Of a stretch of 64,000 nucleotides of DNA, positions 1,813-59,284 are shown one piece after another. The stretch lies in IMG/VR virus record IMGVR_UViG_3300030419_006472, positions 1 through 64,000 of that record. One strand, given 5' to 3'. Below the pieces are notes generated by a model. That model did no database searches, was not told where the DNA came from, and saw only the letters and a program-made list of their open reading frames with translations. The position numbers and the translations under genes are program-made. Origin of the DNA: a virus (taxonomy: Duplodnaviria > Caudoviricetes). How positions within the stretch are numbered: the first letter of the stretch is position 1; every line of letters starts with the position of its first letter.

Positions 1813-1995
1813 ATGCCGAGGAAAAAAGTAAAAAAAGAAAGACACAAAATAACTCCTGATCTTATTTTAGATTTATACAAACACACTAAAACATTACCTG
1901 ATCCAGAAAAAGAAGAAACAGTTGAAAAAGTAAAAGGTCTCGTAAAATACATAGGCAGTGAAATTAGTATAGATTTACATGACATCAAAAATTAA
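1813..1995 (+). CDS. Small hypothetical protein
   Basis: 60-aa ORF with TAAATA (1801-1806) 6 nt before ATG; overlaps the start of the PRTase gene. Confidence 0.55.
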   Translation: MPRKKVKKERHKITPDLILDLYKHTKTLPDPEKEETVEKVKGLVKYIGSEISIDLHDIKN

Positions 1996-2458
1996 ATTAT
2001 CTTGGGAGAGTATTGAACAAGACGTATCTTTATTAACAAAAAAAGCAAAAGATTTTCATCCTACATGTATTCTCGGTGTTGCAAACGGTGGGATGATTCC
2101 TGCGACTCTCTTAGCGAAACTATTAAAAGTTGATAAATTACTTTCATGTAACTTAAAATCATATCAAGACGATGCACCACGAAGTGGTCCTCATAATATA
2201 AATGATGTAGTAAAACAAATCTCCTTTCCAACGCAAGATGAATTAATGAGAGAGAGAGTTTTAGTAGTCGACGATCTTGTTGATACAGGATTAACTCTAC
2301 AAAAAATATATAACAACTTTGTTTTATATAATGATCAATATAATATAAATTGGGATTTTGCTACATTATATTATAAACCTAAAACATCCTTCATGCCTGA
2401 TTATACAGTAAGACAATTTGACAATGATGCGTGGATTGTTTTTCCGTGGGAGAAATAA
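1979..2458 (+). CDS. Type I phosphoribosyltransferase (xanthine/guanine PRTase-like)
   Basis: ILGVANGGMIPA, PRPP-binding VLVVDDLVDTGLT and C-terminal WIVFPWE typical of the Gpt family. Confidence 0.85.
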   Translation: MTSKIKLSWESIEQDVSLLTKKAKDFHPTCILGVANGGMIPATLLAKLLKVDKLLSCNLKSYQDDAPRSGPHNINDVVKQISFPTQDELMRERVLVVDDLVDTGLTLQKIYNNFVLYNDQYNINWDFATLYYKPKTSFMPDYTVRQFDNDAWIVFPWEK

Positions 2459-3517
2459 TTAAGTATATCCAAGCATGGTTAAAGTATGACCAGAGTTAAA
2501 TACTAAATCAGACGCATCAAAGGCAGCCCCGACTTCACCAATCCGAAACTGAAAATGAAGATTACCAGTTGTTGAGTTACTACTCAACGGGCAGAAGAAC
2601 TGTACAACTCCGCCATGTGTTAAACCACCACTACCTTCTGATCTTTCATAAGCAGCTGATAAAGTTGGTGCAGCATTATTTTGAAGAGCACCATCTCTCA
2701 CTTCAAGAAGACCATGTTTTTCATTACCCCATGTACTAGCATGACCTGGCCATAAAAACTGAAATAAACCTGTAGTGGCATTTTTAGGAACACCAGACGG
2801 GTTTGTGTATGTTAGCCAATTACATGCTGAACCAGCTCCACTATGAGTAGAAATCGTTACAGGTGATGAAAGAAATTTTAAAGTACCATCGGCGATTGCT
2901 ACAGAGTCTGTAGTAGCGGATAATTGACCACCAGCTGTAACAACAACATTTCGGTTACCAGTTCCTTTGAGACCAACTACAAACGCGCTACCACCAGTTA
3001 CACTGGTTGTTGATACTGTACCACTAAAAGTTACATCACCGGAAATATCACCACCTGAAATATAATCCCCTTTAATATCATCAGTTTGTACATGTATATT
3101 ACCAAAGGGTATACCAGAGTTAATCGATACCCAGCTAGCTGTCGCACTTGCATCAGTTGCAGTTAATAACATAACACAAGTAGCACTTGCATGAGGAGTC
3201 GAAGTTGTAACTCCATCGGCTTTATAATATTGTAATGCAGGAAAGACAGCTAAATCTCCTTGCATAGCATAACCACCTGTACCACCATCATATGCAGAAG
3301 CTTGTACTAATTTAGTATGAAAATGGCGACCTAATTCACCACCGCTAACATGAATAGTAGTTCCTACTGATCTACCGCCCGCTGTTGAACCATCCCCGAT
3401 TACTATTCTAAAGGCGTCTGTAGAATATCCGAGTTCGCCTGCGCACAACGTGGTAAGCTTTCTATCTGTATCAGTACCACGTCGTAAAAATAATCTAGCC
3501 TTCTTAACCTCTGCCAT
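2459..3517 (-). CDS. Putative tail fibre / virion appendage protein
   Basis: N-terminal LFLRRGT...GELGYSTD...IGDG.TAGG resembles the Mtd/hyaluronidase-type fibre N-domain; G/S/T-rich; late promoter upstream. Confidence 0.65.
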   Translation of the reverse strand: MAEVKKARLFLRRGTDTDRKLTTLCAGELGYSTDAFRIVIGDGSTAGGRSVGTTIHVSGGELGRHFHTKLVQASAYDGGTGGYAMQGDLAVFPALQYYKADGVTTSTPHASATCVMLLTATDASATASWVSINSGIPFGNIHVQTDDIKGDYISGGDISGDVTFSGTVSTTSVTGGSAFVVGLKGTGNRNVVVTAGGQLSATTDSVAIADGTLKFLSSPVTISTHSGAGSACNWLTYTNPSGVPKNATTGLFQFLWPGHASTWGNEKHGLLEVRDGALQNNAAPTLSAAYERSEGSGGLTHGGVVQFFCPLSSNSTTGNLHFQFRIGEVGAAFDASDLVFNSGHTLTMLGYT

Positions 3518-3827: not shown

Positions 3828-4253
3828 ATGAATGATTTATTTAATTACTTAACAAAACCACGGGTAGCAAGATCATACAGTCCTATGTTTGATCTTTTTA
3901 ATACACTAGAGCAATCATTTACTGGACCGTTTGAATCATTTTCAAATGATAATATCCGGTTTAATGAAACTAAAGAAGGGTCAAATGTTGAAATTGATCT
4001 TCCGGGTGTAAAGAAAGAAAACCTTAAAGTCACTTACAACGATGACACGGACGTAGCTTATGTTGAAGCTAAACGAACCATTACTACAAAAACCGGTTCT
4101 AAAGAAGAAACATATAACCGATCATTTAAAATTGATGGAAATGATTTTAATGTTGAAGAACTAAAAGCAGAAATTACTGACGGTGTTTTGCGTATTAATG
4201 TTCCTAGAGCTGAACGTAAAGAACAAAAAGTAATTAACGTCGAAGTGGCTTAA
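3828..4253 (+). CDS. Small heat-shock protein Hsp20
   Basis: Alpha-crystallin motifs EIDLPGVKKENLKV, YNRSFKI, AEITDGVLRINVP. Confidence 0.9.
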   Translation: MNDLFNYLTKPRVARSYSPMFDLFNTLEQSFTGPFESFSNDNIRFNETKEGSNVEIDLPGVKKENLKVTYNDDTDVAYVEAKRTITTKTGSKEETYNRSFKIDGNDFNVEELKAEITDGVLRINVPRAERKEQKVINVEVA

Positions 4254-4276: not shown

Positions 4277-4315
4277 AGGTAGCGAAATATTAAAGTATTT
4301 CGCTACCTTTCTTTT
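4277..4315 (+). terminator. Intrinsic terminator after hsp20, overlapping the stop of the convergent gp5-like gene
   Basis: Perfect 13-bp stem AGGTAGCGAAATA / TATTTCGCTACCT, 6-nt loop, followed by TTCTTTT. Confidence 0.7.
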
Positions 4316-6638
4316 CATGTGATACAGGCTGAGCTTGTGCTCGAATATGACTATTACATTCTTCACCAACACCACGAACACCGTCTTTTTCTTTATATAA
4401 CTTGAGAGGTAAATTCTTAAACGGATGAGTATGTGGATATGACTCTACTTTGTCGTCATTACTGTCATCATTTAAAGTTAATGTTATTTTACCCTTACCT
4501 GTGTTGGTTCTTCTTCTTTCATGCTCCGTTATGTTAAAATCCGCAGTAAATTCTAACCCTTCTAATAATTTAGCAAATAACGTAATCGGTTCTGTTTCCT
4601 GTATTTCGACAGGTGCAGAAATATGATGAACACTTAGTTCGCCTTCGACATGAGCACCTCCTTGAACGATGAGGTTTTGAGTAACACCTAAATTACTATC
4701 TACTAATACTTGCTTACTATGTTTATTTCGTAGTGTTAATATTTCAGCAGCAATATCAATTCTCTTTGACGACATATTAATCTCATACTCCGAACTTATA
4801 TTAACTTGTTGACCAGCAATATTTGTTATCGTACCTCCAATATCAACTCCACCCGTAGACTTAATACTAACACCTCCACTACCAACTAAAACATTCCATT
4901 TATTTCCAATATTTTGTGTATAATCTCCTCCCGGGAAATCATCTTGATGAACATATTCCAATAAAGCTGATTCTTTCTTTGTAGTAGCAACACCTTTAGT
5001 AAACACATTTACTTCATAATTTTCTATCTTACCGACTTCATCTATACGTACTGACGGGAAGTCGTTATAAACTAAACCAATATTTTCTATTTTATGCTTT
5101 GTGATGTTTACAATCTCACTACCACCAAGACCTAATTTCTTCTCAATATTAATTATTTTCTGAATCTTTGCTTGTAAATTATCTACCACAACCTTCTCTT
5201 TATCAGACGCAACATCCCAATTACCATCTTTACTAGAAGGACTCTGACCCGTACCTCCGCATACCGGGCAAACTTTTTTACCTAAAAACTGTCTTGGACT
5301 AGACGGGTCAATTAAATCGCTAAGAGTATTAGCGTACAGTGAGTCAACTTGCCCTGCATGATCAAATGAAGAATTACCGCTATCATATGCAAAATTTTGC
5401 GTTACCGATTTAAATGTATATATATTGTCCCATATCTGATCTTTTTGAAACACATCACTACAAAGCGGACATTGTGCCGGTGTACCAACTTTTCGTTGAA
5501 GCCCTGAGGTCTTTTTTATAAAATCATTAGGATCGTTTACTGGCTCAGTTCTTTGTAGCTCAAATAATTGCTTACCGTCGGCAATATCTTCCATAAGATC
5601 TCGCCATTCTTTTTGATATTCCCTATTTAAATTACCAATTTTCCTGTAATAATCTCCATTAATAATCTGATCATAGTCTCTACCAACATAGTCATTTTTA
5701 GTTCCATTAACAGTAAAAAACTCATCACCTAAAACTAATTTTTGATTATTCTTTGTTGCAAATTCTATATTAACATCGTTATTAAATTCTTTAAATGAAC
5801 CGGAATAATGAGTCAATTTTAAAGCTTCTTTAGTGTCAGTACTAACTATTTCTATAGTACCACCTTTTTGATTAATAACATACTTATTTCTATAAATGTC
5901 TGTATTATGATTATATTCAGTACTTATATTTTCATACGAACCGGGATAATCTAAATCAGAATTATATATTGACTTCCATTCGGCGGAGCCATACGTTGTC
6001 GCAAAATAAATCGGGTTATTTGGATCCCCTTCCGCAAAAAACACCCACACATGAGCACCTACATTAGGTATACTAAAACTACCTTTTGCACTATTAGAAT
6101 AAGAAGTTGGAACATAATTATATGAAAATCTATTTACATTATTAAATCTAACTTCATTTTTATCTGAAAATGCATCAGCAACTTTAAGGTCGTGATGCTC
6201 ATATTTTCTAGACGGCTTTTCACCTATACCGTCTTGGTTTAAATTATACTCACTTTCAATAGACTCCTCCGCAGGAGTCGAACTATTAACGTTATTAGAA
6301 TCCGATATTGTTGCTGTTTGAGTATATGCGTTATATCTTGCAGGAGCAACACTACCTGCTATCGGAGATGCACACTCTGCCCATGGAACTACTACTTTAA
6401 GCTCTTCTATAATATCTGTAATATCACTGTTAATATTTCTTCCGATAAATTTAAATGCTTTATCATTATTATTCTCGTCCCAGTTTTTATAAATTGTAGG
6501 TGAGACAGGAGGTACCCATACTTTTATTCTACCTCCTTTATCGGGATCATTGTTTTGTATAACTAGTCCTATATAATTACCGAAATATTTCTCAGTGTCG
6601 TTTAATCCTGCATTTGCATTTACATGTATACTACTCAT
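4290..6638 (-). CDS. Baseplate hub/spike protein, T4 gp5-like (OB-fold N-terminus, beta-helix, no lysozyme recognised)
   Basis: YIGLVIQNNDPDKGGRIKVWVP and FSIPNVGAHVWVFFAEGDPNNPIYF match the gp5/VgrG OB domain; beta-helix repeats; C-terminal HTH (His-x-His) spike motif. Confidence 0.8.
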   Translation of the reverse strand: MSSIHVNANAGLNDTEKYFGNYIGLVIQNNDPDKGGRIKVWVPPVSPTIYKNWDENNNDKAFKFIGRNINSDITDIIEELKVVVPWAECASPIAGSVAPARYNAYTQTATISDSNNVNSSTPAEESIESEYNLNQDGIGEKPSRKYEHHDLKVADAFSDKNEVRFNNVNRFSYNYVPTSYSNSAKGSFSIPNVGAHVWVFFAEGDPNNPIYFATTYGSAEWKSIYNSDLDYPGSYENISTEYNHNTDIYRNKYVINQKGGTIEIVSTDTKEALKLTHYSGSFKEFNNDVNIEFATKNNQKLVLGDEFFTVNGTKNDYVGRDYDQIINGDYYRKIGNLNREYQKEWRDLMEDIADGKQLFELQRTEPVNDPNDFIKKTSGLQRKVGTPAQCPLCSDVFQKDQIWDNIYTFKSVTQNFAYDSGNSSFDHAGQVDSLYANTLSDLIDPSSPRQFLGKKVCPVCGGTGQSPSSKDGNWDVASDKEKVVVDNLQAKIQKIINIEKKLGLGGSEIVNITKHKIENIGLVYNDFPSVRIDEVGKIENYEVNVFTKGVATTKKESALLEYVHQDDFPGGDYTQNIGNKWNVLVGSGGVSIKSTGGVDIGGTITNIAGQQVNISSEYEINMSSKRIDIAAEILTLRNKHSKQVLVDSNLGVTQNLIVQGGAHVEGELSVHHISAPVEIQETEPITLFAKLLEGLEFTADFNITEHERRRTNTGKGKITLTLNDDSNDDKVESYPHTHPFKNLPLKLYKEKDGVRGVGEECNSHIRAQAQPVSHEKKGSEIL

Positions 6639-6648
6639 TTTGTTTATT

Positions 6649-7797
6649 TTAATATCCGGGTGTTGGTGGGTTTGGTAGCACTCTATTACCTTCCGGTAAT
6701 ATTTTCATTCTTAATCCTGCAGCTGTTTCAACAGGTTCATCGGCCTGACGTTTTGATAATTGCATTAATCTAGCACCTCCTTTAAAACGGTGCCTAGACT
6801 TCACAATTGAACTAACAGTATTATTACTTACTTTTTGATCTTTTTGTATACTTGTATTAAGAGTACCTACAATTTGATCACTTTTATTCATAATATCTTG
6901 TTGTTTTTTATCAGGATTATTTCGCCATTGTGCTATTGTTGTGTCAGGCACTGGATCTCTTGTTGACGACTCTCCTGTACGTCTAGGAGAAGGTGGGTCT
7001 AATTCATCTATTTGATTTTTTCTTTCCGTATCTTCAAATTCCTGCTCTCTTCTTCTCTTCCCTTCTTCAAAAGCATCCATTAATTCCTTTACTTCTGCAG
7101 AAGAAGCAGGTGTTGCTTCCGGGCATATATCTCTAATCTGTCCATGTAAGCGTTGTTTAAATAATGTTAATTGATGTATTTTAATTTTCTGATACATTAA
7201 ACCACGAAGCTCTGCGTCTATTTTTTGTTCTAATTGATTACGAAACTTTCCTAAAATACCATTTAATCTATCTTCAATATTTATCAAAAAATCTATAGTA
7301 GGGAGTTTATTAATTAAGTCTCTTATAGCTTTATTAATACAGCCAAGTACTGTCTTCATAAATGTTTGCTTAAGAGCGCTTATCTGTGACGTAATATTAT
7401 CTAATACTGCACCACCTAGACTACCTAATAAATTATCTTGATCTAAACTAACTCCTGTAAATTTTTCTAAAGTACTCGTTATAGCTTCTTTAGGGGTTAG
7501 CTTTAATCCCTGTTTATATGCCACGGCTAGCTGTTTAACTTGCCGAGGTGTAACCGTAGCGATAATGCCCGTCTTTTTGTCTCCTGTTAACTGATCTGAT
7601 ATCTTAGTAGGATCTAAAATATCTGCAACTGCATCAACTTTTTTCTTAATTGCCTCTTTTATTATTTTTCCTGATATCAAAGTATTTTTAGCAAATTCTT
7701 TAAACGGTCGAATCGTTGGAATTGCGATTACTTTTCTAAAAGCCGCCACAGCACCAGCCGCAGTACTTGTAAGAGCCTTTTTAACAGATCCTGGCAT
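6649..7797 (-). CDS. Hypothetical late (probably baseplate/virion) protein
   Basis: Track ORF 6649..7869; the start is more likely ATG 7797 (MPGSVKK), 8 nt downstream of a perfect TATAAATA. Confidence 0.6.
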   Translation of the reverse strand: MPGSVKKALTSTAAGAVAAFRKVIAIPTIRPFKEFAKNTLISGKIIKEAIKKKVDAVADILDPTKISDQLTGDKKTGIIATVTPRQVKQLAVAYKQGLKLTPKEAITSTLEKFTGVSLDQDNLLGSLGGAVLDNITSQISALKQTFMKTVLGCINKAIRDLINKLPTIDFLINIEDRLNGILGKFRNQLEQKIDAELRGLMYQKIKIHQLTLFKQRLHGQIRDICPEATPASSAEVKELMDAFEEGKRRREQEFEDTERKNQIDELDPPSPRRTGESSTRDPVPDTTIAQWRNNPDKKQQDIMNKSDQIVGTLNTSIQKDQKVSNNTVSSIVKSRHRFKGGARLMQLSKRQADEPVETAAGLRMKILPEGNRVLPNPPTPGY

Positions 7798-7805
7798 ATT
7801 ATAAT

Positions 7806-7813
7806 TATTTATA
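7806..7813 (-). promoter_or_regulatory. T4-type late promoter TATAAATA
   Basis: Exact T4 gp55 consensus 8 nt upstream of ATG 7797; gp55 is encoded in the window. Confidence 0.7.
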
Positions 7814-7814
7814 C

Positions 7815-7842
7815 TTGATCTTTGTAGTACATATGCTATAAT
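7815..7842 (+). promoter_or_regulatory. Sigma70-type early promoter of the dpdA operon
   Basis: TTGATC-N16-TATAAT with extended -10 TG, 6 nt before ATG 7849. Confidence 0.7.
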
Positions 7843-7848
7843 ACCTGT

Positions 7849-8667
7849 ATGACGATTAAGGTGTCTCATGAATCTCCTATTGCTCTACTACCAGAGTCAA
7901 TATTATACAACGATTATCAATATTGTTTAGTACATTTAATGGAAGAAGAACCAGAATATAGAGACTGGTTTCTCGGAAAATATAGAGCCATCAGACCAGA
8001 TGGTGAAATTCTATTAGATAATTCTATTTTTGAACTTAAGGAAGCGTTTGATTCGGAAAAATATGCACAATGGTGCGAGAAAATAAAACCAAATTATTAC
8101 ATTGTACCAGATGTATTAGAATCAGCATACGGTACAATAGCAAACTTTAAAGCATTTACACAAGATTATAGTGGTCTTCCGGGAGCAACTATCGGTGCAG
8201 TTCAAGGTAAAACATGGACGGATGTCGTTGATTGCTATAAGTTTATGTCAGAGAATGCAGATTATATTGCTATGAGTTTTGACTTTAGTATGTATAATGT
8301 AACGGGTTTTAATCGATTAATTGATAATGAAAAACTTATGCGACAAACTACAGGAAGACAAAACCTTGTAAAAAGACTTATTGATGAAGGATGGTGGGAT
8401 TGGGATAAACCACATCACTTGTTAGGTGCTTCATTGGCTAGAGAGTTTAAGTGGTACGTGAATAATAACATTTATAATATTAGAAGTCTTGATACATCTA
8501 ATCCAGTTGTAGCAGGATTATTAGGTTATCCTTATCAAGGAGATTTTGGTCTAAGTCATAAACCTAGTCAATTACTAGCACATATGATTCGAGCTCAACC
8601 TGATGATGACGCAAAAGAACTTATTAGATACAACACAAAGATGTTTAAAAGTATTATTGGACGATGA
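7849..8667 (+). CDS. dpdA: DpdA-family (DpdA3-like) 7-deazaguanine transglycosylase, TGT fold
   Basis: TGT-like motifs ILLDNSIFE, IVPDV, GAVQG, HHLLG, IRSLDTSNP; first gene of an operon ending in queF. Confidence 0.75.
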   Translation: MTIKVSHESPIALLPESILYNDYQYCLVHLMEEEPEYRDWFLGKYRAIRPDGEILLDNSIFELKEAFDSEKYAQWCEKIKPNYYIVPDVLESAYGTIANFKAFTQDYSGLPGATIGAVQGKTWTDVVDCYKFMSENADYIAMSFDFSMYNVTGFNRLIDNEKLMRQTTGRQNLVKRLIDEGWWDWDKPHHLLGASLAREFKWYVNNNIYNIRSLDTSNPVVAGLLGYPYQGDFGLSHKPSQLLAHMIRAQPDDDAKELIRYNTKMFKSIIGR

Positions 8668-9236
8668 AGTGGATTGCATTTTTTAGTCAAACTGGTTCTG
8701 AAATTGTTAATATATCTAAGACTATCAATAGATGGCCAGATCTTGTTGTAACTAATAAACAAAATGACGAAAGTACTAATATTGAGCTTGTTCGACGAGT
8801 AAACCAACAACTAATTAATATAGTTAGATTACCAAAATGGCCAAAGGAAATGGATTATCTTAGAGCAGCAGATGCTTTAAATTATTCTATTTTAAATGAC
8901 GATTGGACAAACGATGTATTTGTAACTCTTCATGGGTATCTTAGAATATTACCTCCTGACTTTACTAGATCATCTAATATCTTTAATGGTCATCCAGGAG
9001 CTATTCATATCTATCCTGAACTTAAAGGTTTTAATCCGCAGAAAAAGGCTTGGGAAGCAAACCATATTCGAGTCGGGTGTGTTATTCATAAAGTAACCCC
9101 CGAACTCGATGATGGTCCTGTTATAGAAAAGTGTCTTATTAATAATGATTTTGATTCATACGAAGAACTAGAGAAAGCTCTTCACGTTGAATCTACAAAA
9201 CTTTGGATAAATTTTTTAAATGAAAGATTACGATGA
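8664..9236 (+). CDS. PurN-like formyltransferase (DpdN-like preQ1 formyltransferase)
   Basis: FSQTGS, LHGYLRILP, NGHPG, HKVTPELDDGPVI are formyl-THF transferase motifs; translationally coupled to dpdA. Confidence 0.8.
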   Translation: MKWIAFFSQTGSEIVNISKTINRWPDLVVTNKQNDESTNIELVRRVNQQLINIVRLPKWPKEMDYLRAADALNYSILNDDWTNDVFVTLHGYLRILPPDFTRSSNIFNGHPGAIHIYPELKGFNPQKKAWEANHIRVGCVIHKVTPELDDGPVIEKCLINNDFDSYEELEKALHVESTKLWINFLNERLR

Positions 9237-9570
9237 AATTAAAAAAACGGTAGAAGCAGATTACCCTCAAACATGCGCAATGTTGAAGAATTTGCTCGAA
9301 GAAGAATATAAATTGTTTATTCAGAAACAATACGATTACGGACCAGGTAACATTTCAGTTGGTCAAGACGTATCGAAACCAGAAGGACAAATAGTCGCAA
9401 AAACCGGACTAGTGTTTCGTATTCATGATAAAGTACAGAGATTGATTAATCTTATCATTGTGAAACGTACTGACGAAGCTGCCAATGAACCAATTATCGA
9501 TGCTTGGAAAGATTCAAGTTTATATTGCAAAATTGCTCAGATAGTCGATAATGGTACTTGGGGCAAATAA
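9220..9570 (+). CDS. DUF1599 / nucleotide-modification-associated domain 1 protein
   Basis: KQYDYGPGNI, RIHDKVQRL, EPIIDAWKD..Y pattern. Confidence 0.7.
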   Translation: MKDYDEIKKTVEADYPQTCAMLKNLLEEEYKLFIQKQYDYGPGNISVGQDVSKPEGQIVAKTGLVFRIHDKVQRLINLIIVKRTDEAANEPIIDAWKDSSLYCKIAQIVDNGTWGK

Positions 9571-10133
9571 TGTTAATATCTTTTACAGGAGCTCAATCTT
9601 CAGGTAAGACGACGTTACTCAATCATTGGACTGATTGCAGGAATCACTTTAAAGTAGTTCCGGAAGTTACGCGTAAGTTAAAAAGACAGGGGTTTGAGAT
9701 AAACGACGATAGTAGTAACTACGTCGATACTCAAATCGCAATATTAGCTGATCATCTAAATAATATATTTTTATATGCTAATACAGAAACAACTGGAATA
9801 GTTGTAGATACTATTTTAGATAGATGTATTATTGATGGATTTATTTATACACGATACTTTCGACGAGAAGGTAAAGTAGATGAATTTGTAGATAAGATAT
9901 TTACTTATATGCTGAAAAAGTATATTGAGAAATATGATTATATCTTTTATACTAGCCCGTATGATGTAGCTCTAATTAATGACGGAGAAAGATCTATGAG
10001 CGAGAGCTTTCGCAATAAGATTATAAAATTATATGAAGAATTAATCTTAGATAAGTATCCGAATGTTTATGTACTTGAAGGAAGTGTTGAGAGTCGCTAT
10101 AATAAGATGACAGAGATAATATATAATGAGTAA
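9570..10133 (+). CDS. P-loop nucleotide kinase/ATPase (AAA_28/NadR-like)
   Basis: Walker A GAQSSGKTT, VPEVTR, ILDRCIID, DGER; probable start ATG 9570 overlaps the upstream TAA. Confidence 0.75.
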   Translation: MLISFTGAQSSGKTTLLNHWTDCRNHFKVVPEVTRKLKRQGFEINDDSSNYVDTQIAILADHLNNIFLYANTETTGIVVDTILDRCIIDGFIYTRYFRREGKVDEFVDKIFTYMLKKYIEKYDYIFYTSPYDVALINDGERSMSESFRNKIIKLYEELILDKYPNVYVLEGSVESRYNKMTEIIYNE

Positions 10134-11094
10134 ACTCGATAATAAAAACATAAGTAAGCACCTAGGTAAAACTAGCAAATATAAATCTCAATACGATCCG
10201 AGTCTTCTCGTAAGAGAGCCTAGATCCAGTAACCGCAAACATCTTGATATTAAAGAGAAAGATCTACCTTTTGTAGGGTACGATGTATGGAACGGTTATG
10301 AAGTATCAGGACTATTAAATAACGGTGTTCCTATTAGTGCAGTTGCTAAAGTAGTATATCCATGTGATAGTAAATATATCGTCGAATCTAAATCTATGAA
10401 ACTATATTGGAATAGTTTTAATATGACTAAGCTTGGAGATACAATAGAAGAAACAGTGAGCGCTATGGAGAAGATGGCTACTGAAGATCTTAGTACGTTA
10501 CTACAAACGGAAGTTAAAGTTAAATTATTCTCTTGCGATACGGATTTAAAAGGAGTTTCTAATCCATTCTTAGAATCATATGATGCTACTCCAAATTCTT
10601 TAACGATTGTATCAACTAAAAAATATGTAAGGTTGGAGCACTACTTGACAACTGGATGGCGGTCAAAGGAGAAGATTGAGATTACTAAGTATAATGAAGA
10701 TCCTTCTATATTTGATACTAAATATACCTCTGTATCTCAGCCGAATAATCTAAATGTAATGTCTTCATTACTTAAAAGTAATTGCCGAGTTACGTCGCAA
10801 CCTGATTGGGGAGATGTATTTATTCATATAGAAGGACAATGGTTGCCTGGTGTAAGAGAATTACTTGAATATATTATTTCGTTTAGAGACGAAAACCACT
10901 TCCATGAAGAAATATGTGAAACTATATATAAACGCTTGTATGATAGGTTCTCCCCGCGGGAATTAATGATTGCGTGTCTATACGCACGAAGAGGTGGATG
11001 GGATATTAATCCAGTTAGAGCTAATAAAATAGAATTAATCGATAATATTATGTGGGATGAAACCATTCCATGGATTAAGACTATTAGACAATAA
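10126..11094 (+). CDS. queF: NADPH-dependent preQ0 reductase QueF (two-domain type)
   Basis: QueF motif VESKSMKLYWNSF, catalytic SNCRVTSQPDWG, FHEEICE, YARRGGWDINP. Confidence 0.93.
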   Translation: MSKLDNKNISKHLGKTSKYKSQYDPSLLVREPRSSNRKHLDIKEKDLPFVGYDVWNGYEVSGLLNNGVPISAVAKVVYPCDSKYIVESKSMKLYWNSFNMTKLGDTIEETVSAMEKMATEDLSTLLQTEVKVKLFSCDTDLKGVSNPFLESYDATPNSLTIVSTKKYVRLEHYLTTGWRSKEKIEITKYNEDPSIFDTKYTSVSQPNNLNVMSSLLKSNCRVTSQPDWGDVFIHIEGQWLPGVRELLEYIISFRDENHFHEEICETIYKRLYDRFSPRELMIACLYARRGGWDINPVRANKIELIDNIMWDETIPWIKTIRQ

Positions 11095-11121
11095 AAAAAG
11101 GGCGCTCTTTCGAGCGCCCTT
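11091..11121 (-). terminator. Intrinsic terminator of gp23 (between convergent queF and gp23)
   Basis: 10-bp stem AAGGGCGCTC / GAGCGCCCTT with a GAAA loop on the minus strand, followed by a T run. Confidence 0.85.
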
Positions 11122-11142
11122 CGATAATAAACAATATTCGAC

Positions 11143-12714
11143 TTACTGGAATACCGTAGATTGTGCTGCAGCAGCACCACTGTTGAACTGCAAGCCGAGA
11201 CCAGCAACAAACACAACATGGTAGTAGTTAGCTGCACCAAAGAGGTGATCAACTACACCATAACGTGTTAACATACCGACCTTCGGATAGAAGCTATTCG
11301 GATCAACCGAACGCTGTACCATAACCGGAATATAAGGACAGTAAATGATACCAGTATCATAATACTCTGGTCCTTTATAACCAAGCAATGCATACTCAAC
11401 CCTTGTGGAGGCGCCTGTATAACCTGTTCCCAAGTTATATGTAGCTTCGGTACGTGTATCGCGATAAACGTTAAAACGTCCACCAACGTTACCAACCTTA
11501 GCAACACCAACCGGTTGTGTGTTAACATTACCGTTAACGGTCATCCAAGAGAACTCAGGAAGCATCTCAAGAATGGCGCAAACACTAGGTGTTGCAACAA
11601 CAAAGTTAGCAGCACCACGACGGTTGCGAACAGCCATCCTATTAGCCTCAACGATCAACTTCTGATAGAAGTCGCGATTTCTCTCACCCTGCCAGCGAGC
11701 ATCAGCAGCTGATACCTTGTATGTGGAATAGCCAGTGTTATGACCACCACCGATAGCAGCTTGAACCATGCGAATAATCATCTCACGGTCGATTTCAGCT
11801 TGAATCTCATATGACATAGCATTTGTCAACTCAGCGTCAACATCAATACCATTCATATTCTTAAGATCCTGCTCGAGCTCAACTGACCAACGAGCGTTCA
11901 GCCTACGAGTACCAGCTTCAACAGCTGTCTTCTCGAAACTCAACTCGACGGTAGGAGCTGACTTAGCCTTATCAAGCTCGAAAGCAGACAAAGCAGCAGC
12001 AAAACCTTCGTCCTGTGAATCAAGACCAGCTGACAACCAGTGCGCTGTACCAATACCAGCAAGGGTACCAACTGACGCAGCAGCTTTAGTTCCCGCTTGA
12101 ACGGTCGAGCTACTTACACCAGTAAATGATGTACCTAAGTAGTTGTGACCCAACTCACCGTTAGGTGCGCCAGCAGAACCAGCAGCAGCTGTTCCTGCAT
12201 TATTCACTGCATCAGTGACATCACCGATATGTGAAGCAGCGCTTGTATCAGCAGCAGCTGTATTATCAATAGTATCAGCACTGTACTTATAGCGAAGAGC
12301 AAATGCGAGACCAACCGGACCACTCATTGGCTGAACACCAACGATCTCGTTAGTAATCAACTCAGGGAATGTACGGCGAATCATCGGAATAAGAATCTTC
12401 GGTAAACGTGCGTCGTTAGATGCATATGTATCCCCAGATCCATATGTACCACCGGCCTGACCAGCACCATGACCAACGCTCGAACCAAACGAGCCTTGAT
12501 TACCTGCGGCATTACCAGATGTGTTACCCTCTCTCAAACACCATTCCTCTTGGTTCTCAAGGAGAATGGCAGTGTTCATCCGCGTATGCGGATTCTCAAT
12601 AGGCGAAACTTTGTCAGAGGTATAGTCCAGAACTGGACTCCACTTCTCCAACAATTGCTCTGCTCTATTATTGTCAATATAATTAGTATTTGGACGTGTA
12701 TCTGTTTCGTTCAT
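11143..12714 (-). CDS. gp23: Major capsid protein (T4 gp23)
   Basis: LLEKWSPVL, ILLENQE, IVGVQPMSGPVGLAFALR, WSVELEQDLK, YCPYIP, GMLTRYG. Confidence 0.97.
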   Translation of the reverse strand: MNETDTRPNTNYIDNNRAEQLLEKWSPVLDYTSDKVSPIENPHTRMNTAILLENQEEWCLREGNTSGNAAGNQGSFGSSVGHGAGQAGGTYGSGDTYASNDARLPKILIPMIRRTFPELITNEIVGVQPMSGPVGLAFALRYKYSADTIDNTAAADTSAASHIGDVTDAVNNAGTAAAGSAGAPNGELGHNYLGTSFTGVSSSTVQAGTKAAASVGTLAGIGTAHWLSAGLDSQDEGFAAALSAFELDKAKSAPTVELSFEKTAVEAGTRRLNARWSVELEQDLKNMNGIDVDAELTNAMSYEIQAEIDREMIIRMVQAAIGGGHNTGYSTYKVSAADARWQGERNRDFYQKLIVEANRMAVRNRRGAANFVVATPSVCAILEMLPEFSWMTVNGNVNTQPVGVAKVGNVGGRFNVYRDTRTEATYNLGTGYTGASTRVEYALLGYKGPEYYDTGIIYCPYIPVMVQRSVDPNSFYPKVGMLTRYGVVDHLFGAANYYHVVFVAGLGLQFNSGAAAAQSTVFQ

Positions 12715-48906: not shown

Positions 48907-49707
48907 ATGGCTAGAAAAGGACGTTCCGCGTCGGTTTCTAACTCAACTAAAAAGACTGCATTAAGTGGCAGACGAGTTAGTAAGAAAAAATTAGTTAACA
49001 ATAAGGAAATTAAAGAAAGTATAGAAAAAAATACATTCCTAAATTTTGATGTTAAACAAAAATATGAAATAACACCCGTTCACGAACAATTCCTTGAGAC
49101 ATGTTTTAAGGATATATGTAGAATGGCGTTAGTCGACGGACCTGCCGGGTCGGCAAAGACATATTTATCAGTATATGTCGCATTACAATTATTACGTACA
49201 CAAAAAGTACAAGAAATTATCTACATACGAAGTATTGTAGAGTCAGCATCAAAAAGCATGGGGTCGTTACCAGGAGAAGTTGATGATAAATTTTTACCGT
49301 GGTGTTTTCCGTTATTTGAAAAATTAAATGAATTTTTAGATAAGTCTTTATCTTCTAGCCTAATAACTGAACAATATATTAAATGTGTACCGGTAAACTA
49401 CGTACGTGGTTTAACGTTTAACAACGCTTGTGTTTTAATTGATGAAGCGCAAAACTTAACCTCCGGGGAATTAACTACAATTTTAACACGGTTTGGCGAA
49501 AATACGAAATATATAATAACCGGAGATACACAGCAAAGTGATATAGGAAGTAAGACTGGTTTTAAGTCGATTTTAAATGCATTTAATACAGAGGAGTCCT
49601 ATAAACACGGTATATGTACGTTTAAATTTAATGAATTAGATATTGTACGATCTGAAATATTAAAATATATTGTAAAAGTGCTGAGAGATTTAAAGATGGA
49701 AGCTTAA
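48907..49707 (+). CDS. phoH: PhoH-family protein
   Basis: GPAGSAKT, RGLTF, DEAQN, TRFGE, GDTQQSD, DIVRS. Confidence 0.93.
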   Translation: MARKGRSASVSNSTKKTALSGRRVSKKKLVNNKEIKESIEKNTFLNFDVKQKYEITPVHEQFLETCFKDICRMALVDGPAGSAKTYLSVYVALQLLRTQKVQEIIYIRSIVESASKSMGSLPGEVDDKFLPWCFPLFEKLNEFLDKSLSSSLITEQYIKCVPVNYVRGLTFNNACVLIDEAQNLTSGELTTILTRFGENTKYIITGDTQQSDIGSKTGFKSILNAFNTEESYKHGICTFKFNELDIVRSEILKYIVKVLRDLKMEA

Positions 49708-49885: not shown

Positions 49886-50644
49886 TTATTTATTCATACG
49901 ACTCGCCTTATCTTTCTCGATTTGCTCTTCTAATGCTTTTCGTAAATGAGAATGCTCTGTAGGATCTACATCTGCCCACGCACCACTTAATGCTTTCATG
50001 TCAGATAGCATATCTTCATCGATAAGATCTCCCCCAGGATGTATATCTCCCTCAGCATCAATATAAAGTTTAAGTATTTGTATACGTTCTCTCTGACTGC
50101 CAAATACTTCTATAATACCAGGTTTATCATCTTTAATAAAAAACACACTTGAATCATTATTCATGTATTCTCGGTGCATAGCTTTAAAGATATTATCTAC
50201 TTCCTCTATAACTTTAAGGTTAGTGTCCCGTAGATCATCTTCTGTTAATTCAACAGGAGCGACCTTTGTTATAGGTGTGAAAAATATAATATCTAAATCA
50301 CGAAAACTCTCTCTAACGAGAGGAATACATTCCTGTACAAAATCATCATCTATATCTAACTCGGTCTGTTCGGTTGCCCACATGCTATATACAAGATTAT
50401 CTAATGGACATCTATCAAAAATTACATTATCAGAGCTACGATATTTCTTTTGCTCTTTAATCATAAAATCTAATATTTTCTTTTGTGTTTTTTTATTAGT
50501 TTTTGATGAATGCTCGAGATCATTTTCTTTAATAATGTCTCTATACGTCTTTTTAGGGGTAGTGTAACTCGGCCATTGCTCTAAGAAGTCTTTAATTAAA
50601 GTAGTTTTACCCTGACACGCAGTTCCACTAATTGCAATCCTCAT
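49886..50644 (-). CDS. P-loop nucleotide kinase/ATPase (AAA_28-like)
   Basis: GTACQGKTT, FDRCPLD, D.LR; directly downstream of queE. Confidence 0.75.
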   Translation of the reverse strand: MRIAISGTACQGKTTLIKDFLEQWPSYTTPKKTYRDIIKENDLEHSSKTNKKTQKKILDFMIKEQKKYRSSDNVIFDRCPLDNLVYSMWATEQTELDIDDDFVQECIPLVRESFRDLDIIFFTPITKVAPVELTEDDLRDTNLKVIEEVDNIFKAMHREYMNNDSSVFFIKDDKPGIIEVFGSQRERIQILKLYIDAEGDIHPGGDLIDEDMLSDMKALSGAWADVDPTEHSHLRKALEEQIEKDKASRMNK

Positions 50645-50664: not shown

Positions 50665-51426
50665 TTACACTTTTAAGGCCATATCCCATACTAGTAAATG
50701 TAGCCTAGGGCTAAAATTAAAGTGATGCTTTTTAGCTAATTCTGCAACCATAGGAGCAACTTCAATATGCTCTTTTCTACTACCAGCGCAAGGCATTAAC
50801 CAAACACGACCTGTAGGTATATCAAATTTATCAACATACTTTTTCATCACTTCATCTAAATCTGATTCTTTACTTATGACGAATTTAAAACCAGATCCTT
50901 GATTTGCATGCCATTCTAGTACATTAGGTTTATATCTCCTATTTTCTGGGTCACCATTATTACTAAGCTTAGGAGAAGTAGTAAATGTAGCACCAATTCT
51001 AACCCATTCTTTATCTGGCATAATTGTAGCGTTGGTTTCAAAATCAATTCTAGGTACCCAACCCCATTCTACCTCCATATATGCTAAAAACCTAAGCAAC
51101 GCAGGCTGCTGTACTAAGGGCTCACCACCTGTAATCTTCCATATAGCTCCGTTATATAAATGCTTTTCAAAACCTTCCTGTTCTAAGTGTTGTAATAAAT
51201 CAGCATTTGTAATTCTATTCTTAACGCTCCAAGATATATAACTATCACAACCATTGGGAGAATCTTCTGAAGCGAAACCTTGACATGTAAGGTTACACAT
51301 AGATAATCGCATAAATACCGAAGGGTATCCTACAAACTCTCCTTCTCCTTCCACAGTATAAAATACTTTATCGTCAGATAATAGTATTGTCTTATCACTA
51401 AGATCGTCTTTATAAAGATTTGTCAT
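50665..51426 (-). CDS. queE: 7-carboxy-7-deazaguanine synthase QueE
   Basis: FYTVEGEG, F.R...CNLTC...CDS, ITGGEPL, ETN, SPKL, SPRLH. Confidence 0.93.
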   Translation of the reverse strand: MTNLYKDDLSDKTILLSDDKVFYTVEGEGEFVGYPSVFMRLSMCNLTCQGFASEDSPNGCDSYISWSVKNRITNADLLQHLEQEGFEKHLYNGAIWKITGGEPLVQQPALLRFLAYMEVEWGWVPRIDFETNATIMPDKEWVRIGATFTTSPKLSNNGDPENRRYKPNVLEWHANQGSGFKFVISKESDLDEVMKKYVDKFDIPTGRVWLMPCAGSRKEHIEVAPMVAELAKKHHFNFSPRLHLLVWDMALKV

Positions 51427-51561: not shown

Positions 51562-52041
51562 TTAATCTACTGTAGCTGAAAGTGCAGACCATACTGCAGT
51601 TGTATCTTCTACTTCATAAATAGCAGAATTATTTTCATGTTCGAAAACTTCTACTCTTTTACACCAACATCTATCATCAGTTAGTTCTTTTACATACTCA
51701 TCAGCAGTTCGCCAGCAATATTCAGCAAACTTTTCAATACCAACACCATCCATAATTCTTAAATCTACAATATCATCGTCGTTTAACATCTTAAAGGCTC
51801 TTATTGCAGGGTCGTCGGCGGCAATTACAGTGGTGTGATCGAATTGATGTTGGAGTTTCTTTTTAAGATCTTTTAATCCACCGAAGTCAACAACCCAATT
51901 ATTCTCATCTAACTCTTTAGCTCCAAACCAAAATTTACCAACCAACCGATAACCGTGTACAAACCGGCAATGCGATGTAGCTTTAGGCTGTCTGAACGCA
52001 CAACTACCTAATTCAATAATTTTAGTACTAGAAAAACTCAT
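51562..52041 (-). CDS. queD: 6-carboxy-tetrahydropterin synthase QueD
   Basis: CAFRQ, HCRFVHGY, WVVDFG, FDH, GIEKFAE, EHENNSA. Confidence 0.9.
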   Translation of the reverse strand: MSFSSTKIIELGSCAFRQPKATSHCRFVHGYRLVGKFWFGAKELDENNWVVDFGGLKDLKKKLQHQFDHTTVIAADDPAIRAFKMLNDDDIVDLRIMDGVGIEKFAEYCWRTADEYVKELTDDRCWCKRVEVFEHENNSAIYEVEDTTAVWSALSATVD

Positions 52042-57443: not shown

Positions 57444-57471
57444 TTGATTTATAATTCAAATATGTTATAAT
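57444..57471 (+). promoter_or_regulatory. Sigma70-type promoter of folE
   Basis: TTGATT-N16-TATAAT with extended TG, 7 nt before ATG 57479. Confidence 0.7.
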
Positions 57472-57478
57472 GATTCAT

Positions 57479-58117
57479 ATGAATGAGGATTTACTTCGAT
57501 ACGCTAACGGTAATAAACCGCGAACACAAGAAGAGAGAGAAGCGATAATTGATAAAGCTGCTGCAGCGTATGAAAAATATATGGATGCATTAGGCTTTGA
57601 TTGGAGAAATGATCCTAATAGCGCAGACACTCCAAGACGGGTAGCTAAGGCATTTGTTAATGATCTAGCAGAAGGATGTTATAGTAATTCACCGAAAATT
57701 ACAGCATTTGATAATGTTGATAAGTACGATGGTTTAGTATTTCAAGGTAATATTAAAGTTAATTCTTTTTGCTCACATCATCACTTACCGTTTATTGGTC
57801 AAGCTCATGTATCTTATATACCTGGAAAAGACGGTAAGGTAATCGGTTTAAGTAAAATTAATCGTATTGTTGAATGGTTTTCAAGACGACCACAAGTACA
57901 AGAAAACTTAACTATGCAAATTCATAATTATATGAATGAAGTATGTAAGGGAAATAAAGGTATTGCAGTTCTAGTATCAGCTAATCATACATGCGCCGGT
58001 CTTAGAGGTGTTAAGCATGATAGTATTATGAAAACTGCTAGAATGTCAGGAGCGTTTTTAGATAAAACAGATTTAACTCGTCAAGAGTTTTATGACTTTG
58101 TCAGAGATTTAAAATAA
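57479..58117 (+). CDS. folE: GTP cyclohydrolase I FolE
   Basis: DTPRRVAKA, SFCSHHHLPF.G, GLSKINR, RRPQVQE, HTC..RGV; track start 57470, likely start 57479. Confidence 0.95.
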   Translation: MNEDLLRYANGNKPRTQEEREAIIDKAAAAYEKYMDALGFDWRNDPNSADTPRRVAKAFVNDLAEGCYSNSPKITAFDNVDKYDGLVFQGNIKVNSFCSHHHLPFIGQAHVSYIPGKDGKVIGLSKINRIVEWFSRRPQVQENLTMQIHNYMNEVCKGNKGIAVLVSANHTCAGLRGVKHDSIMKTARMSGAFLDKTDLTRQEFYDFVRDLK

Positions 58118-59284
58118 TTACTGAAGAGAATCAAAAACTTGTTTAACTTCCTCAGGACTGACGTGCTCCGGTATGTCAGTCCTTATTTTTTCAAAATCGT
58201 CAAAGTTATCTCTAATATTACTAGCACTATAAGGACGACCAGATGCATTTGTACTAACATTAACAGCAGTCTGTTCCGGGTCGAGGATATTTAAACCTAA
58301 TCCTTCTTTCTCGGCCCATGGACGCGCATATGACCAGCGCTTCCAATCATTATCTTTTGTACTAGCTCCTAAAACTACCGTTGTTCCGGCATCTAATGTC
58401 TTAAGAGATTCATACGCTGCCGTAACTGGGGACGGATATTCAGAAATACTTACTGTTACATTATTAAGAGGTTCAACGTATAGTTCAAAAATTTGTGCTG
58501 CAGCAGATGGAGTAATTACTTTACCGTCTTTAGTTCTTCTCTCACTCTTAGCAGACGGTGCAGAAATTAAAACATGTACATGACCATCAGGATAGGCTCG
58601 GCTATAATGTTCGACCATTTCATAATGACCTTTATGAGGTGGTTTAAAGCTACCAGGAACAAGAACAACTACTTTATCGTTTTTTTTTAATAGATCCTCA
58701 AGGACCATGTCTGCTTTATTAACAAAACTTTCAGTATATCCTTGATCGACTAGTATCTTGTGTACAATTTTAGCTACCTTTTTAGCAGTTTCTGGTTCAG
58801 CATCTTTATTAATAAGTTCTCTATCAGCGTCTGATAGTAATACATCATCTAAGTCAATATGTAATGCTTTACGAGCAAGATTTACTAAAAATGTTTCTCC
58901 TTCTGTCGTTAACGGTTCAGCTGGCTCTTGAACAGGATCCGGTAACGGTGGAACTCCAACTCCAGGAGGCGGAATAGCTGGTTCAAATTCACCACCAACA
59001 GGTGGTCCTTGTCTAGGAACAAATTCATCTCCTGGAGCCTCGATGAGCATTGAGTTAATTACTTCTGTTGAAGAATTTAAGGCCTGTATATCCTGTTGAA
59101 CCTTGGTTTGGAGCTTTTTAGTTCTTTCATCATCATCTTTTAATGCTTGCTTTTCATCATCAGTAAGATCATTAGGTGTCTCCTTCTGCTTTTTTCTTAG
59201 GTTAGCGAGGGTTTGAGTCTCAGTAGAGTGTGTATCATCATGACCTGTTGTCAATTCAGCGATTTTTTTAAGAAACTTACTCAT
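58118..59284 (-). CDS. Cytidyltransferase-like (HIGH) protein with acidic/Pro-rich N-terminal extension
   Basis: PGSFKPPHKGH, SPV, YSASNIR; TATAAATA upstream. Confidence 0.7.
   Translation of the reverse strand: MSKFLKKIAELTTGHDDTHSTETQTLANLRKKQKETPNDLTDDEKQALKDDDERTKKLQTKVQQDIQALNSSTEVINSMLIEAPGDEFVPRQGPPVGGEFEPAIPPPGVGVPPLPDPVQEPAEPLTTEGETFLVNLARKALHIDLDDVLLSDADRELINKDAEPETAKKVAKIVHKILVDQGYTESFVNKADMVLEDLLKKNDKVVVLVPGSFKPPHKGHYEMVEHYSRAYPDGHVHVLISAPSAKSERRTKDGKVITPSAAAQIFELYVEPLNNVTVSISEYPSPVTAAYESLKTLDAGTTVVLGASTKDNDWKRWSYARPWAEKEGLGLNILDPEQTAVNVSTNASGRPYSASNIRDNFDDFEKIRTDIPEHVSPEEVKQVFDSLQ

Follow-up and report, generated by a model that had tools for sequence, protein, structure and literature searches.

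A DpdA3, DpdN, kinase and QueF cassette in an uncultured marine T4-like phage, with comparative support for a possible nucleotide-level route to 7-deazaguanine DNA

In the DNA of Flavobacterium phage immuto_2-6A, 345,000 of every 10^6 nucleotides are formyl-preQ1 (fdPreQ1), and no dG peak is seen (Hutinet 2023, NAR); the phage is one of three chemically analysed phages with an enzyme of the DpdA3 subfamily, and all three, including CP220 (dADG) and phiST (dDG), are reported to have G fully substituted (Hutinet 2023). The same report states that DpdA3 was not reconstituted in E. coli and that missing enzymes are suspected, and it cites the detection of the ADG nucleoside in CP220-infected cells (Hutinet 2023). 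We describe here a five-gene cassette at positions 7849-11094 of the virus record IMGVR_UViG_3300030419_006472. The DNA analysed (the window) is a stretch of 64,000 nucleotides at the start of a 114.7-kb IMG/VR record, whose completeness is rated at 57%, and the source of the DNA is an uncultured marine T4-like phage. The cassette encodes DpdA3, the formyltransferase DpdN, a DUF1599-like protein (open reading frame 3, ORF3), a P-loop kinase (Kin1) and QueF, and is an uncultured addition to the DpdA3/DpdN type described in 2023. It is predicted to serve 7-deazaguanine hypermodification of DNA, and we give roughly even chances to the reading that the DpdA3 subfamily works on free nucleotides before replication.

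The closest characterised system, judged by homology, is that of immuto_2-6A. In both phages DpdA3, DpdN, an AAA_28 kinase and QueF stand in the same order (45, 40, 31 and 43% identity, respectively), and FolE, QueD, QueE and a small purine phosphoribosyltransferase (PRT) are present in both, with QueC of immuto_2-6A as given by Hutinet 2023. The two differ in that a PRA-PH-type gene lies upstream of the immuto_2-6A cassette, whereas a DUF1599-like gene lies inside the operon here; in that the cassette stands beside the polymerase there and among the structural genes of a distant T4-like phage here; and in that the base chemistry was measured there, whereas the present phage is known from its genes alone. 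A full gene set for preQ1, together with DpdA3 and DpdN, appears to be encoded as in immuto_2-6A. A preliminary description of the window, made from the letters alone, had predicted fdPreQ1 DNA; the homology to the DpdA3, DpdN and QueF of immuto_2-6A makes this a sound prediction, and the identities proposed there for DpdA3, the formyltransferase, the kinase and QueF are borne out by homology, Pfam matches and fold.

ORF1 (7849..8667, + strand, 272 amino acids) is assigned, from homology and a predicted fold, as DpdA3, a minimal guanine/7-deazaguanine transglycosylase with the fold of tRNA-guanine transglycosylase (TGT). No Pfam or NCBIfam model matched it, and it receives no score from the TGT model of Pfam. 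The named DpdA3 members were matched by tblastn, namely the DpdA of immuto_2-6A (45.5% identity, E 3e-55), CPT_0056 of CP220 (40%, E 1e-38) and CGPG_00065/gp042 of phiST (27%, E 9e-3), and a hidden Markov model (HMM) built from the DpdA3 family recovered all three. When the AlphaFold model of ORF1 (pLDDT 95.9, built on 58 sequences) was searched with Foldseek, the top 50 matches were TGTs throughout (best E 7.8e-9); VIA-align gave Z 18.1 to archaeosine TGT 1iq8_A (237 residues aligned), Z 18.1 to the DNA preQ0 insertase DpdA 7ui4 (233 of 413 residues) and Z 17.9 to bacterial TGT. The TGT fold proposed for 7849..8667 in the preliminary description was thus recovered by structure search, and its placement in DpdA3 by homology to named members.

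The resemblance to bacterial DpdA, TGT and ArcTGT lies in the catalytic barrel, which superposes with a root-mean-square deviation of about 3.0 A over 232-237 residues, and in an aspartate that aligns with the nucleophile region of 7ui4. The chains compared have 358-577 residues, against 272 in DpdA3, which also has no ParB-like DpdB partner. Three active-site aspartates are invariant in TGT and DpdA (Asp95, Asp130 and Asp256 in S. Montevideo DpdA), and D57, D88 and D215 of DpdA3 are conserved at 90% or more among the 58 sequences. D215 lies in a DTSNP motif that aligns with the 7ui4 segment holding the Asp256 nucleophile, a weak match (E 1.2), and D57 and D88 are paired to the TGT/DpdA aspartates by motif resemblance only. 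Because only one Cys is conserved in the same 58 sequences, with no cysteine cluster, DpdA3 has no zinc motif. The family is acidic (median isoelectric point, pI, 5.48; net charge -8; n=126).

Several DpdA3 proteins are fused to other domains. In P0021 and P0093 (447 amino acids each) the barrel is followed by Formyl_trans_N (E about 2e-9; DpdN HMM E 9e-53), and these fusions suggest that DpdA3 and DpdN may act in succession on the same molecule. The C-terminus of P0012 is weakly GNAT-like (Acetyltransf_1, E 0.0095), while P0031 carries a 317-residue N-terminal domain of no known family and P0038 a NUMOD3 homing-endonuclease-like tail. P0140 (361 amino acids) ends in a 100-residue tail whose K-x-YG / R-x-x-DK motif recalls ORF3. 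A DpdA3-DUF1599 fusion was suspected for P0140 and stays unproven: the K-x-YG motif aligned, but the hhalign comparison with the ORF3 family was not significant (E 0.043), and Pfam finds nothing in the tail.

Kin1 (9558..10133, + strand) has 191 residues if read from a TTG; its true start is probably the ATG at 9570. It is an AAA_28 nucleoside/nucleotide kinase by PF13521 (E 5.5e-15; 56.4 bits against a cut-off of 27) and belongs to phrog_2107 (E 3.5e-23). The best matches of a Kin1 family profile are to structures of deoxyguanosine and other deoxynucleoside kinases, of the ribosylnicotinamide kinase NadR and of thymidylate kinase (TMPK); deoxyguanosine kinase 2jas was matched at 2.4e-8, and 8puu, 9x6f and 2pbr were matched also. 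G11, G16, K17, R39, Q59, D88, R89, D93, R145 and R180 are invariant in the family. Six of these lie outside the P-loop (R39, Q59, D88, R89, D93 and R145) and fall, in the alignment, on the LID and substrate regions of deoxynucleoside kinases. The GenBank name of the immuto and CP220 homologues, thymidylate kinase, was tried for Kin1 and set aside: no TMPK model of Pfam or NCBIfam matched at E<=0.1, TMPK structures rank below the deoxynucleoside kinases with the Kin1 profile, and the name stems from phrog_2107. A second AAA_28 paralogue, Kin2 (49886..50644, - strand; PF13521 E 3e-14), shares the invariant residues of Kin1, lies directly downstream of QueE and QueD, and has an acidic C-terminal extension of about 60 residues. 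Two Kin1-family copies are seen in Campylobacter phages also, where 12 of 17 records show two places. In Streptomyces phage LukeCage (L040, 6216-7627) an FkbM-type methyltransferase gene directly precedes a Kin1-family kinase gene, with a MazG-like gene 5 kb upstream; the FkbM-kinase pairing recurs in 29 Streptomyces phage records and may be another nucleotide-level modification module.

We examined the neighbourhood of DpdA3 in loci fetched as two overlapping sets (31, then 80), which were de-duplicated using the C-terminal 200 residues of the DpdA3 ORF. This left 94 unique entries, of which five were GenBank phages; 16 IMG/VR loci with less than 2600 nt downstream were dropped, giving 73 loci. 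A Kin1-family gene was found within 2.6 kb downstream of DpdA3 in 69 of the 73, and anywhere in the locus in 70 (in L061 it lies at +5 kb); among the 73 loci it was not seen in L055, L096 and L110. The architecture DpdA3-Kin1-QueF accounted for 21 loci. DpdN was followed by ORF3 and Kin1 in 24, by a PF18909 gene and Kin1 in 11, and by Kin1 with neither of these two genes in 10, and a few loci were without QueF. DpdN, adjacent to DpdA3 in 45 of the 73 loci, and QueF are variable, and the kinase is retained.

The slot just upstream of Kin1 was occupied by ORF3 in 24 loci and by the PF18909 gene in 11; no locus had both. PF18909 is named "dATP/dGTP diphosphohydrolase, N-terminal", and the slot gene matched it at E about 2e-22; in eight loci this gene is preceded by a 181-residue protein of no known family. 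Genes for nucleoside triphosphate pyrophosphatases or HD proteins stand beside DpdA3 in immuto, L035, phiST and CP220. The preliminary description had placed the kinase and a nucleotide hydrolase in the DpdA3 module, and the comparison supports this, from the 69 loci with the kinase and the 24 and 11 loci with a slot gene; a universal DUF1599-like gene is not supported, as one is present in 24 of the 73 loci.

Variable extra genes were also noted in these operons. HIT-domain genes are present in two loci (L026:10806-11177 and L061), and IMPDH/GMP-reductase-like genes in four, among them L087:7379-8347 and L104. An ornithine cyclodeaminase family gene (L061:9395-10318) and a cupin gene (L070:6804-7250) lie inside DpdA3 operons as well. 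Several of the extra genes belong to families acting on free purine nucleotides.

ORF3 (9220..9570, + strand, 116 amino acids; phrog_1485) is a DUF1599-like (Nmad1) four-helix protein and a candidate (deoxy)nucleoside triphosphate pyrophosphohydrolase. Its DUF1599 name, as given in the preliminary description, comes from its relatives only, 12 of 27 aligned homologues matching PF07659 (best E 1.7e-6); ORF3 itself did not match the DUF1599 model even at E<=10. In the ESM Atlas, 26 of 30 ORF3 matches fell in the PF07659 (DUF1599) set, with a top score of 0.96. The predicted structure is a helical bundle (pLDDT 89.6), for which Foldseek returned nothing at E<=0.001 and only weak rows to dCTPase; a search of PDB sequences with the ORF3 profile gave no match. 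E90, D94 and D98 are invariant among the homologues. MazG, PRA-PH and HD models had no match in the 114.7-kb record, itself only 57% complete, so that their absence says little.

DpdN (8664..9236, + strand, 190 amino acids) is a PurN-like formyltransferase (PF00551, Formyl_trans_N, E 8.5e-11) that is 39.8% identical to immuto26A_67 (KNV73_gp067; E 7e-37) and matches the PDB PurN structure 5cjj at E 2.8e-8. N108, H110 and D149 do not vary across 10 sequences, and we take them to be the equivalents of N106, H108 and D144 of PurN. A near-invariant N-terminal SQTGSE loop (S8/G11/E13) stands at the position of the PurN glycine-rich loop, which binds phosphate; the comparison of the two loops is offered as a lead only. 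On the same footing, DpdN may derive from an enzyme acting on a ribonucleotide 5'-phosphate, which would fit a nucleotide-level route.

QueF (10126..11094, + strand, 322 amino acids) is a bimodular preQ0 to preQ1 reductase, with both Pfam domains above their cut-offs (QueF_N E 5.5e-33, QueF E 3.7e-17); TIGR03138 scored 249.9 bits, below its cut-off of 293.45. The other pathway genes are dispersed: FolE (GTP cyclohydrolase I; 57470..58117, + strand; PF01227 E 4e-48), QueD (PTPS; 51562..52041, - strand; PF01242 E 7.8e-19), a QueE-like radical SAM enzyme, which is a weak assignment (50665..51426, - strand; tblastn with immuto QueE E 2.9e-6; Fer4_12 E 0.0031), and QueC at 71437-72153 of the same record, beyond the window. 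A purine PRT of the 6-oxopurine type is encoded at 1979..2458 (+ strand; PF00156 E 4.8e-12); it is a homologue of immuto26A_60, and its PDB matches were purine PRT 1vdm (6.2e-19) and XGPRT (2e-6). Purine PRT is also encoded in immuto and phiST, and was not found in CP220, BSTP12 or CC_R7.

Gene order around DpdA3 was compared in five cultured phages. A P-loop gene adjoins DpdA3 in CP220, CC_R7, phiST (AAA_18) and BSTP12, and is one gene away in immuto. The orders are: in immuto, PRA-PH-type pyrophosphatase, DpdA3, DpdN, kinase and QueF; in CP220, a fusion of HD and P-loop domains, DpdA3 and kinase; in CC_R7, QueC, a DpdA3-like gene, kinase and DNA polymerase; in phiST, MazG, a hypothetical gene, the AAA_18 P-loop protein, DpdA3, a short hypothetical gene and polymerase III alpha; and in BSTP12, a P-loop protein, a DpdA3-like gene and polymerase I. 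CP220 (Firehammervirus) and Cellulophaga phage phiST thus resemble the present phage in having a DpdA3 homologue, an adjoining kinase-like P-loop gene and a nucleotide hydrolase nearby (the HD fusion or MazG); they differ in having no QueF, no DpdN and another final base, and the phiST kinase is AAA_18, not AAA_28. Distant DpdA3-like genes were noticed in Bacillus phage BSTP12 (L038, 4342-5690), Weizmannia phage Youna2 and Chryseobacterium phage MA9V-3; that of BSTP12 lies beside a Gat-QueC/QueD/FolE cluster and is mis-annotated in sister records as NadR, integrase or polynucleotide kinase.

Control searches were also run. Three DpdA1 phages (9g, CAjan and Rosebush; partly substituted or unmeasured) gave no match to the Kin1 profile (0 of 3), against E 3.5e-59 in immuto and one weak match in nt-1 (a 327-residue ORF). 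The DpdA3 profile found no match in five control records, in a search that had no positive control, and PF01702, tried on 9g, CAjan, Rosebush, nt-1 and immuto, recovered none of their DpdAs and was too insensitive.

From the gene identities, the folds, the completeness of the pathway and the linkage, we infer a scheme in which every substrate, the order of the steps and their timing are conditional. FolE, QueD, QueE and QueC would convert GTP to preQ0, and QueF would reduce preQ0 to preQ1. A (deoxy)nucleoside triphosphate pyrophosphohydrolase would convert dGTP to dGMP, both removing the competitor and supplying the substrate; this role would fall to the DUF1599-like ORF3 here, to the PF18909 protein in the sister operons, and to MazG, PRA-PH or HD proteins in other phages. 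DpdA3, acting on a free deoxynucleotide or deoxynucleoside, would then put the 7-deazaguanine base in place of guanine, DpdN would formylate the aminomethyl group, and Kin1, perhaps with Kin2, would phosphorylate the product towards the triphosphate, so that the phage polymerase could make fully substituted DNA from the modified deoxynucleoside triphosphate (dNTP). Guanine set free in the exchange would be returned by the purine PRT to GMP, and hence to GTP for FolE.

This scheme has the logic of two known ways to a modified genome. The hydroxymethylcytosine (hmC) of T4 is made by a dCTPase, a dCMP hydroxymethylase and a dNMP kinase, and the Z-cluster of cyanophage S-2L (DatZ, MazZ and PurZ) likewise combines a dNTP hydrolase, a base changer acting on the monophosphate, and kinase logic; in Z-genome phages PurZ receives its dGMP from MazZ (PMC8342488). 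A gene of the dATP/dGTP diphosphohydrolase family (PF18909) in 11 DpdA3 operons adds to the likeness, and the repetition of the hydrolase, modifier and kinase logic of the hmC and Z genomes argues for a pre-replicative route and against the post-replicative one of Hutinet 2023. The difference is that a transglycosylase would change the base here, and none is known to do so on a nucleotide. The complete substitution, the failed reconstitution, the ADG nucleoside and a small acidic DpdA3 without extra subdomains also fit a free-nucleotide route. Going further, DpdA3 would not be a DNA transglycosylase at all; it would be the first TGT-fold enzyme to exchange guanine on a free deoxynucleotide or deoxynucleoside, in company with a dGTP hydrolase and a kinase, and fdPreQ1, dPreQ1, dADG and dDG genomes would be polymerised from the modified dNTP. 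We hold this stronger form tentatively, at a little under even chances. The comparative support for the pre-replicative idea is real, but the idea is unproven.

A number of points weigh against it. We know of no TGT-fold enzyme that acts on a mononucleotide, and the acidic pI and missing subdomains of DpdA3 are weak arguments. Hydrolase activity of ORF3 is only suggested: its best fold match, and the sole full-length one, is 2p06_B, presumably of the MazG-like class, at Z 7.8 over 86 residues, a score that counts as noise among helical bundles; the hhalign comparison of the ORF3 family with the PF18909-like genes aligned the K-x-YG motif without significance (E 0.044); and the mutually exclusive occupancy of the slot could mirror lineage structure, not equivalent function. 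In 30 of the 73 loci (those with DpdA3-Kin1-QueF or DpdA3-DpdN-Kin1-QueF) a hydrolase gene was absent from the fetched flanks. Kin1 relatives were seen in 50 phage records, 29 of them from Streptomyces phages, and in LukeCage, the one Streptomyces record examined, no DpdA3 was found, so that Kin1 is not specific to DpdA3; of the tie between kinase and DpdA3, the linkage in 69 of 73 loci stands and an exclusive link does not. Finally, Hutinet 2023 concludes that the modification is post-replicative.

On that account DpdA3 replaces G in finished DNA with preQ1 or formyl-preQ1, and the part of the kinases, the PRT and the hydrolase is limited to helping purine supply; the released guanine would be recycled (by PRT to GMP, and by kinase to GDP, giving GTP for FolE), or general genes of nucleotide metabolism would simply lie in the module. 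The Kin1 relative of LukeCage, the loci without a hydrolase and the published conclusion just cited all favour it, as do a fold that is that of polynucleotide transglycosylases, with the Asp aligned to the DpdA nucleophile kept, and a PRT of the 6-oxopurine type. It is hard, however, to see complete replacement with no dG peak arising by exchange on DNA of packaged length, and a gene of a dGTP-hydrolase family inside the operon would starve a replication that needs dGTP. Hosts already own a guanylate kinase, and the phage kinase is near-universal beside DpdA3, yet no PRT was found in CP220, BSTP12 or CC_R7, which sits poorly with a recycling role. DpdA3 alone, moreover, yielded no modification in E. 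coli (Hutinet 2023). We consider the post-replicative account unlikely on balance, while giving it appreciable weight.

Two further arrangements were weighed, and to each we assign only a small probability. Kin1 might be an ATPase partner of DpdA3 that hydrolyses ATP for base exchange on DNA, by analogy with bacterial DpdA, which requires the ATPase DpdB for preQ0 insertion (PMC10164549); the tight adjacency of DpdA3 and Kin1 would suit a two-protein enzyme. DpdB is ParB-like (PMC10164549), however, whereas Kin1 is a small P-loop protein of the NMP/nucleoside-kinase type that retains the kinase substrate-site and LID residues, and we regard this partnership as improbable. The remaining arrangement would have the PRT join the 7-deazaguanine to phosphoribosyl pyrophosphate (PRPP), with the kinases and ribonucleotide reductase making the dNTP and DpdA3 clearing residual G from the DNA. 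In toyocamycin-type pathways a PRT does attach a 7-deazaguanine base to PRPP, and a purine PRT is present in this genome, in immuto and in phiST, with two kinase paralogues encoded here; but DpdA3, not the PRT, is the universal element, and no PRT was found in CP220, although its genome is fully substituted, nor in BSTP12 and CC_R7. This too seems a slender prospect, and the nucleotide-level action of DpdA3 remains the reading that we carry forward.

As to layout, the cassette consists of five overlapping + strand ORFs, with coordinates identical to those listed earlier. The junctions overlap, in gene order, by ATGA (4 nt), by 17 nt, by TAATG and by 8 nt; the TAATG junction presupposes that the kinase starts at ATG 9570, not TTG 9558, which is supported because M5 (numbered from the TTG) is invariant among relatives. 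Since all junctions overlap, translational coupling of the five genes is plausible, and on this count the earlier proposal of five coupled genes was confirmed as far as coordinates and junctions go. No Shine-Dalgarno-like sequence was found upstream of any of the five starts. A sigma-70-like promoter match at 7815..7842 (+ strand; TTGATC, 16 nt, TG-TATAAT) is a consensus match only and ends 7 nt before the DpdA3 ATG; such sites are barely enriched in this A+T-rich region (27 found, against 19.1 +/- 4.2 in shuffles), and the match gives no firm support to the single early promoter of the preliminary description. The -10-like hexamer 7 nt ahead of the ATG would allow a leaderless transcript. The cassette forms a + strand island amid - strand structural genes (4290-6638, 6649-7869 and 11143-12714), the last encoding a T4-type capsid protein with 31% identity to cyanomyophage capsids. 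A G+C-rich, terminator-like hairpin (11097..11122; 11 pairs, 7 of them G-C, with a T-run on the - strand side) lies between the convergent QueF and capsid genes.

Other genes noted in the window encode a protein with a major-tropism-determinant N-terminal domain (2459-3517, - strand; Mtd_N, E 6.6e-7), Hsp20 (3828-4253, + strand), PhoH (48907-49707, + strand) and, beside FolE, a 388-residue protein with a weak cytidylyltransferase-like domain (58118-59284, - strand). At least half of the sampled words of the cassette (7849-11094) were present in five public runs from three studies, labelled as marine or seawater metagenomes and all available as contigs, one perhaps from the source sample; matches with shares under 0.2 were disregarded, and none of the public runs listed was an RNA dataset containing the cassette.

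As far as literature searches go, neither the conserved pairing of DpdA3 with a kinase nor the hydrolase slot with its interchangeable genes has been reported. The word "kinase" has no occurrence in the main text of Hutinet 2023, whose supplements may already list the kinase, and the searches found no paper proposing a nucleotide-level DpdA3; apart from Hutinet 2023, the papers returned were unrelated. Candidates for the enzymes missing from the DpdA3 reconstitution are supplied by the kinase and by the genes of the hydrolase slot, which point to a different substrate. If DpdA3 is not a DNA transglycosylase, the published post-replicative model would be overturned for the DpdA3 subfamily; if the nucleotide-level route is right, it would be a new type of reaction in the TGT superfamily and would define a compact gene set for fully 7-deazaguanine-substituted DNA. 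The DpdA3 family is large in metagenomes: a set of 1.84 billion proteins contains 1057 representatives at E<=0.001, and IMG/VR at least 533 stretches, so that such genomes may be common in the sea.

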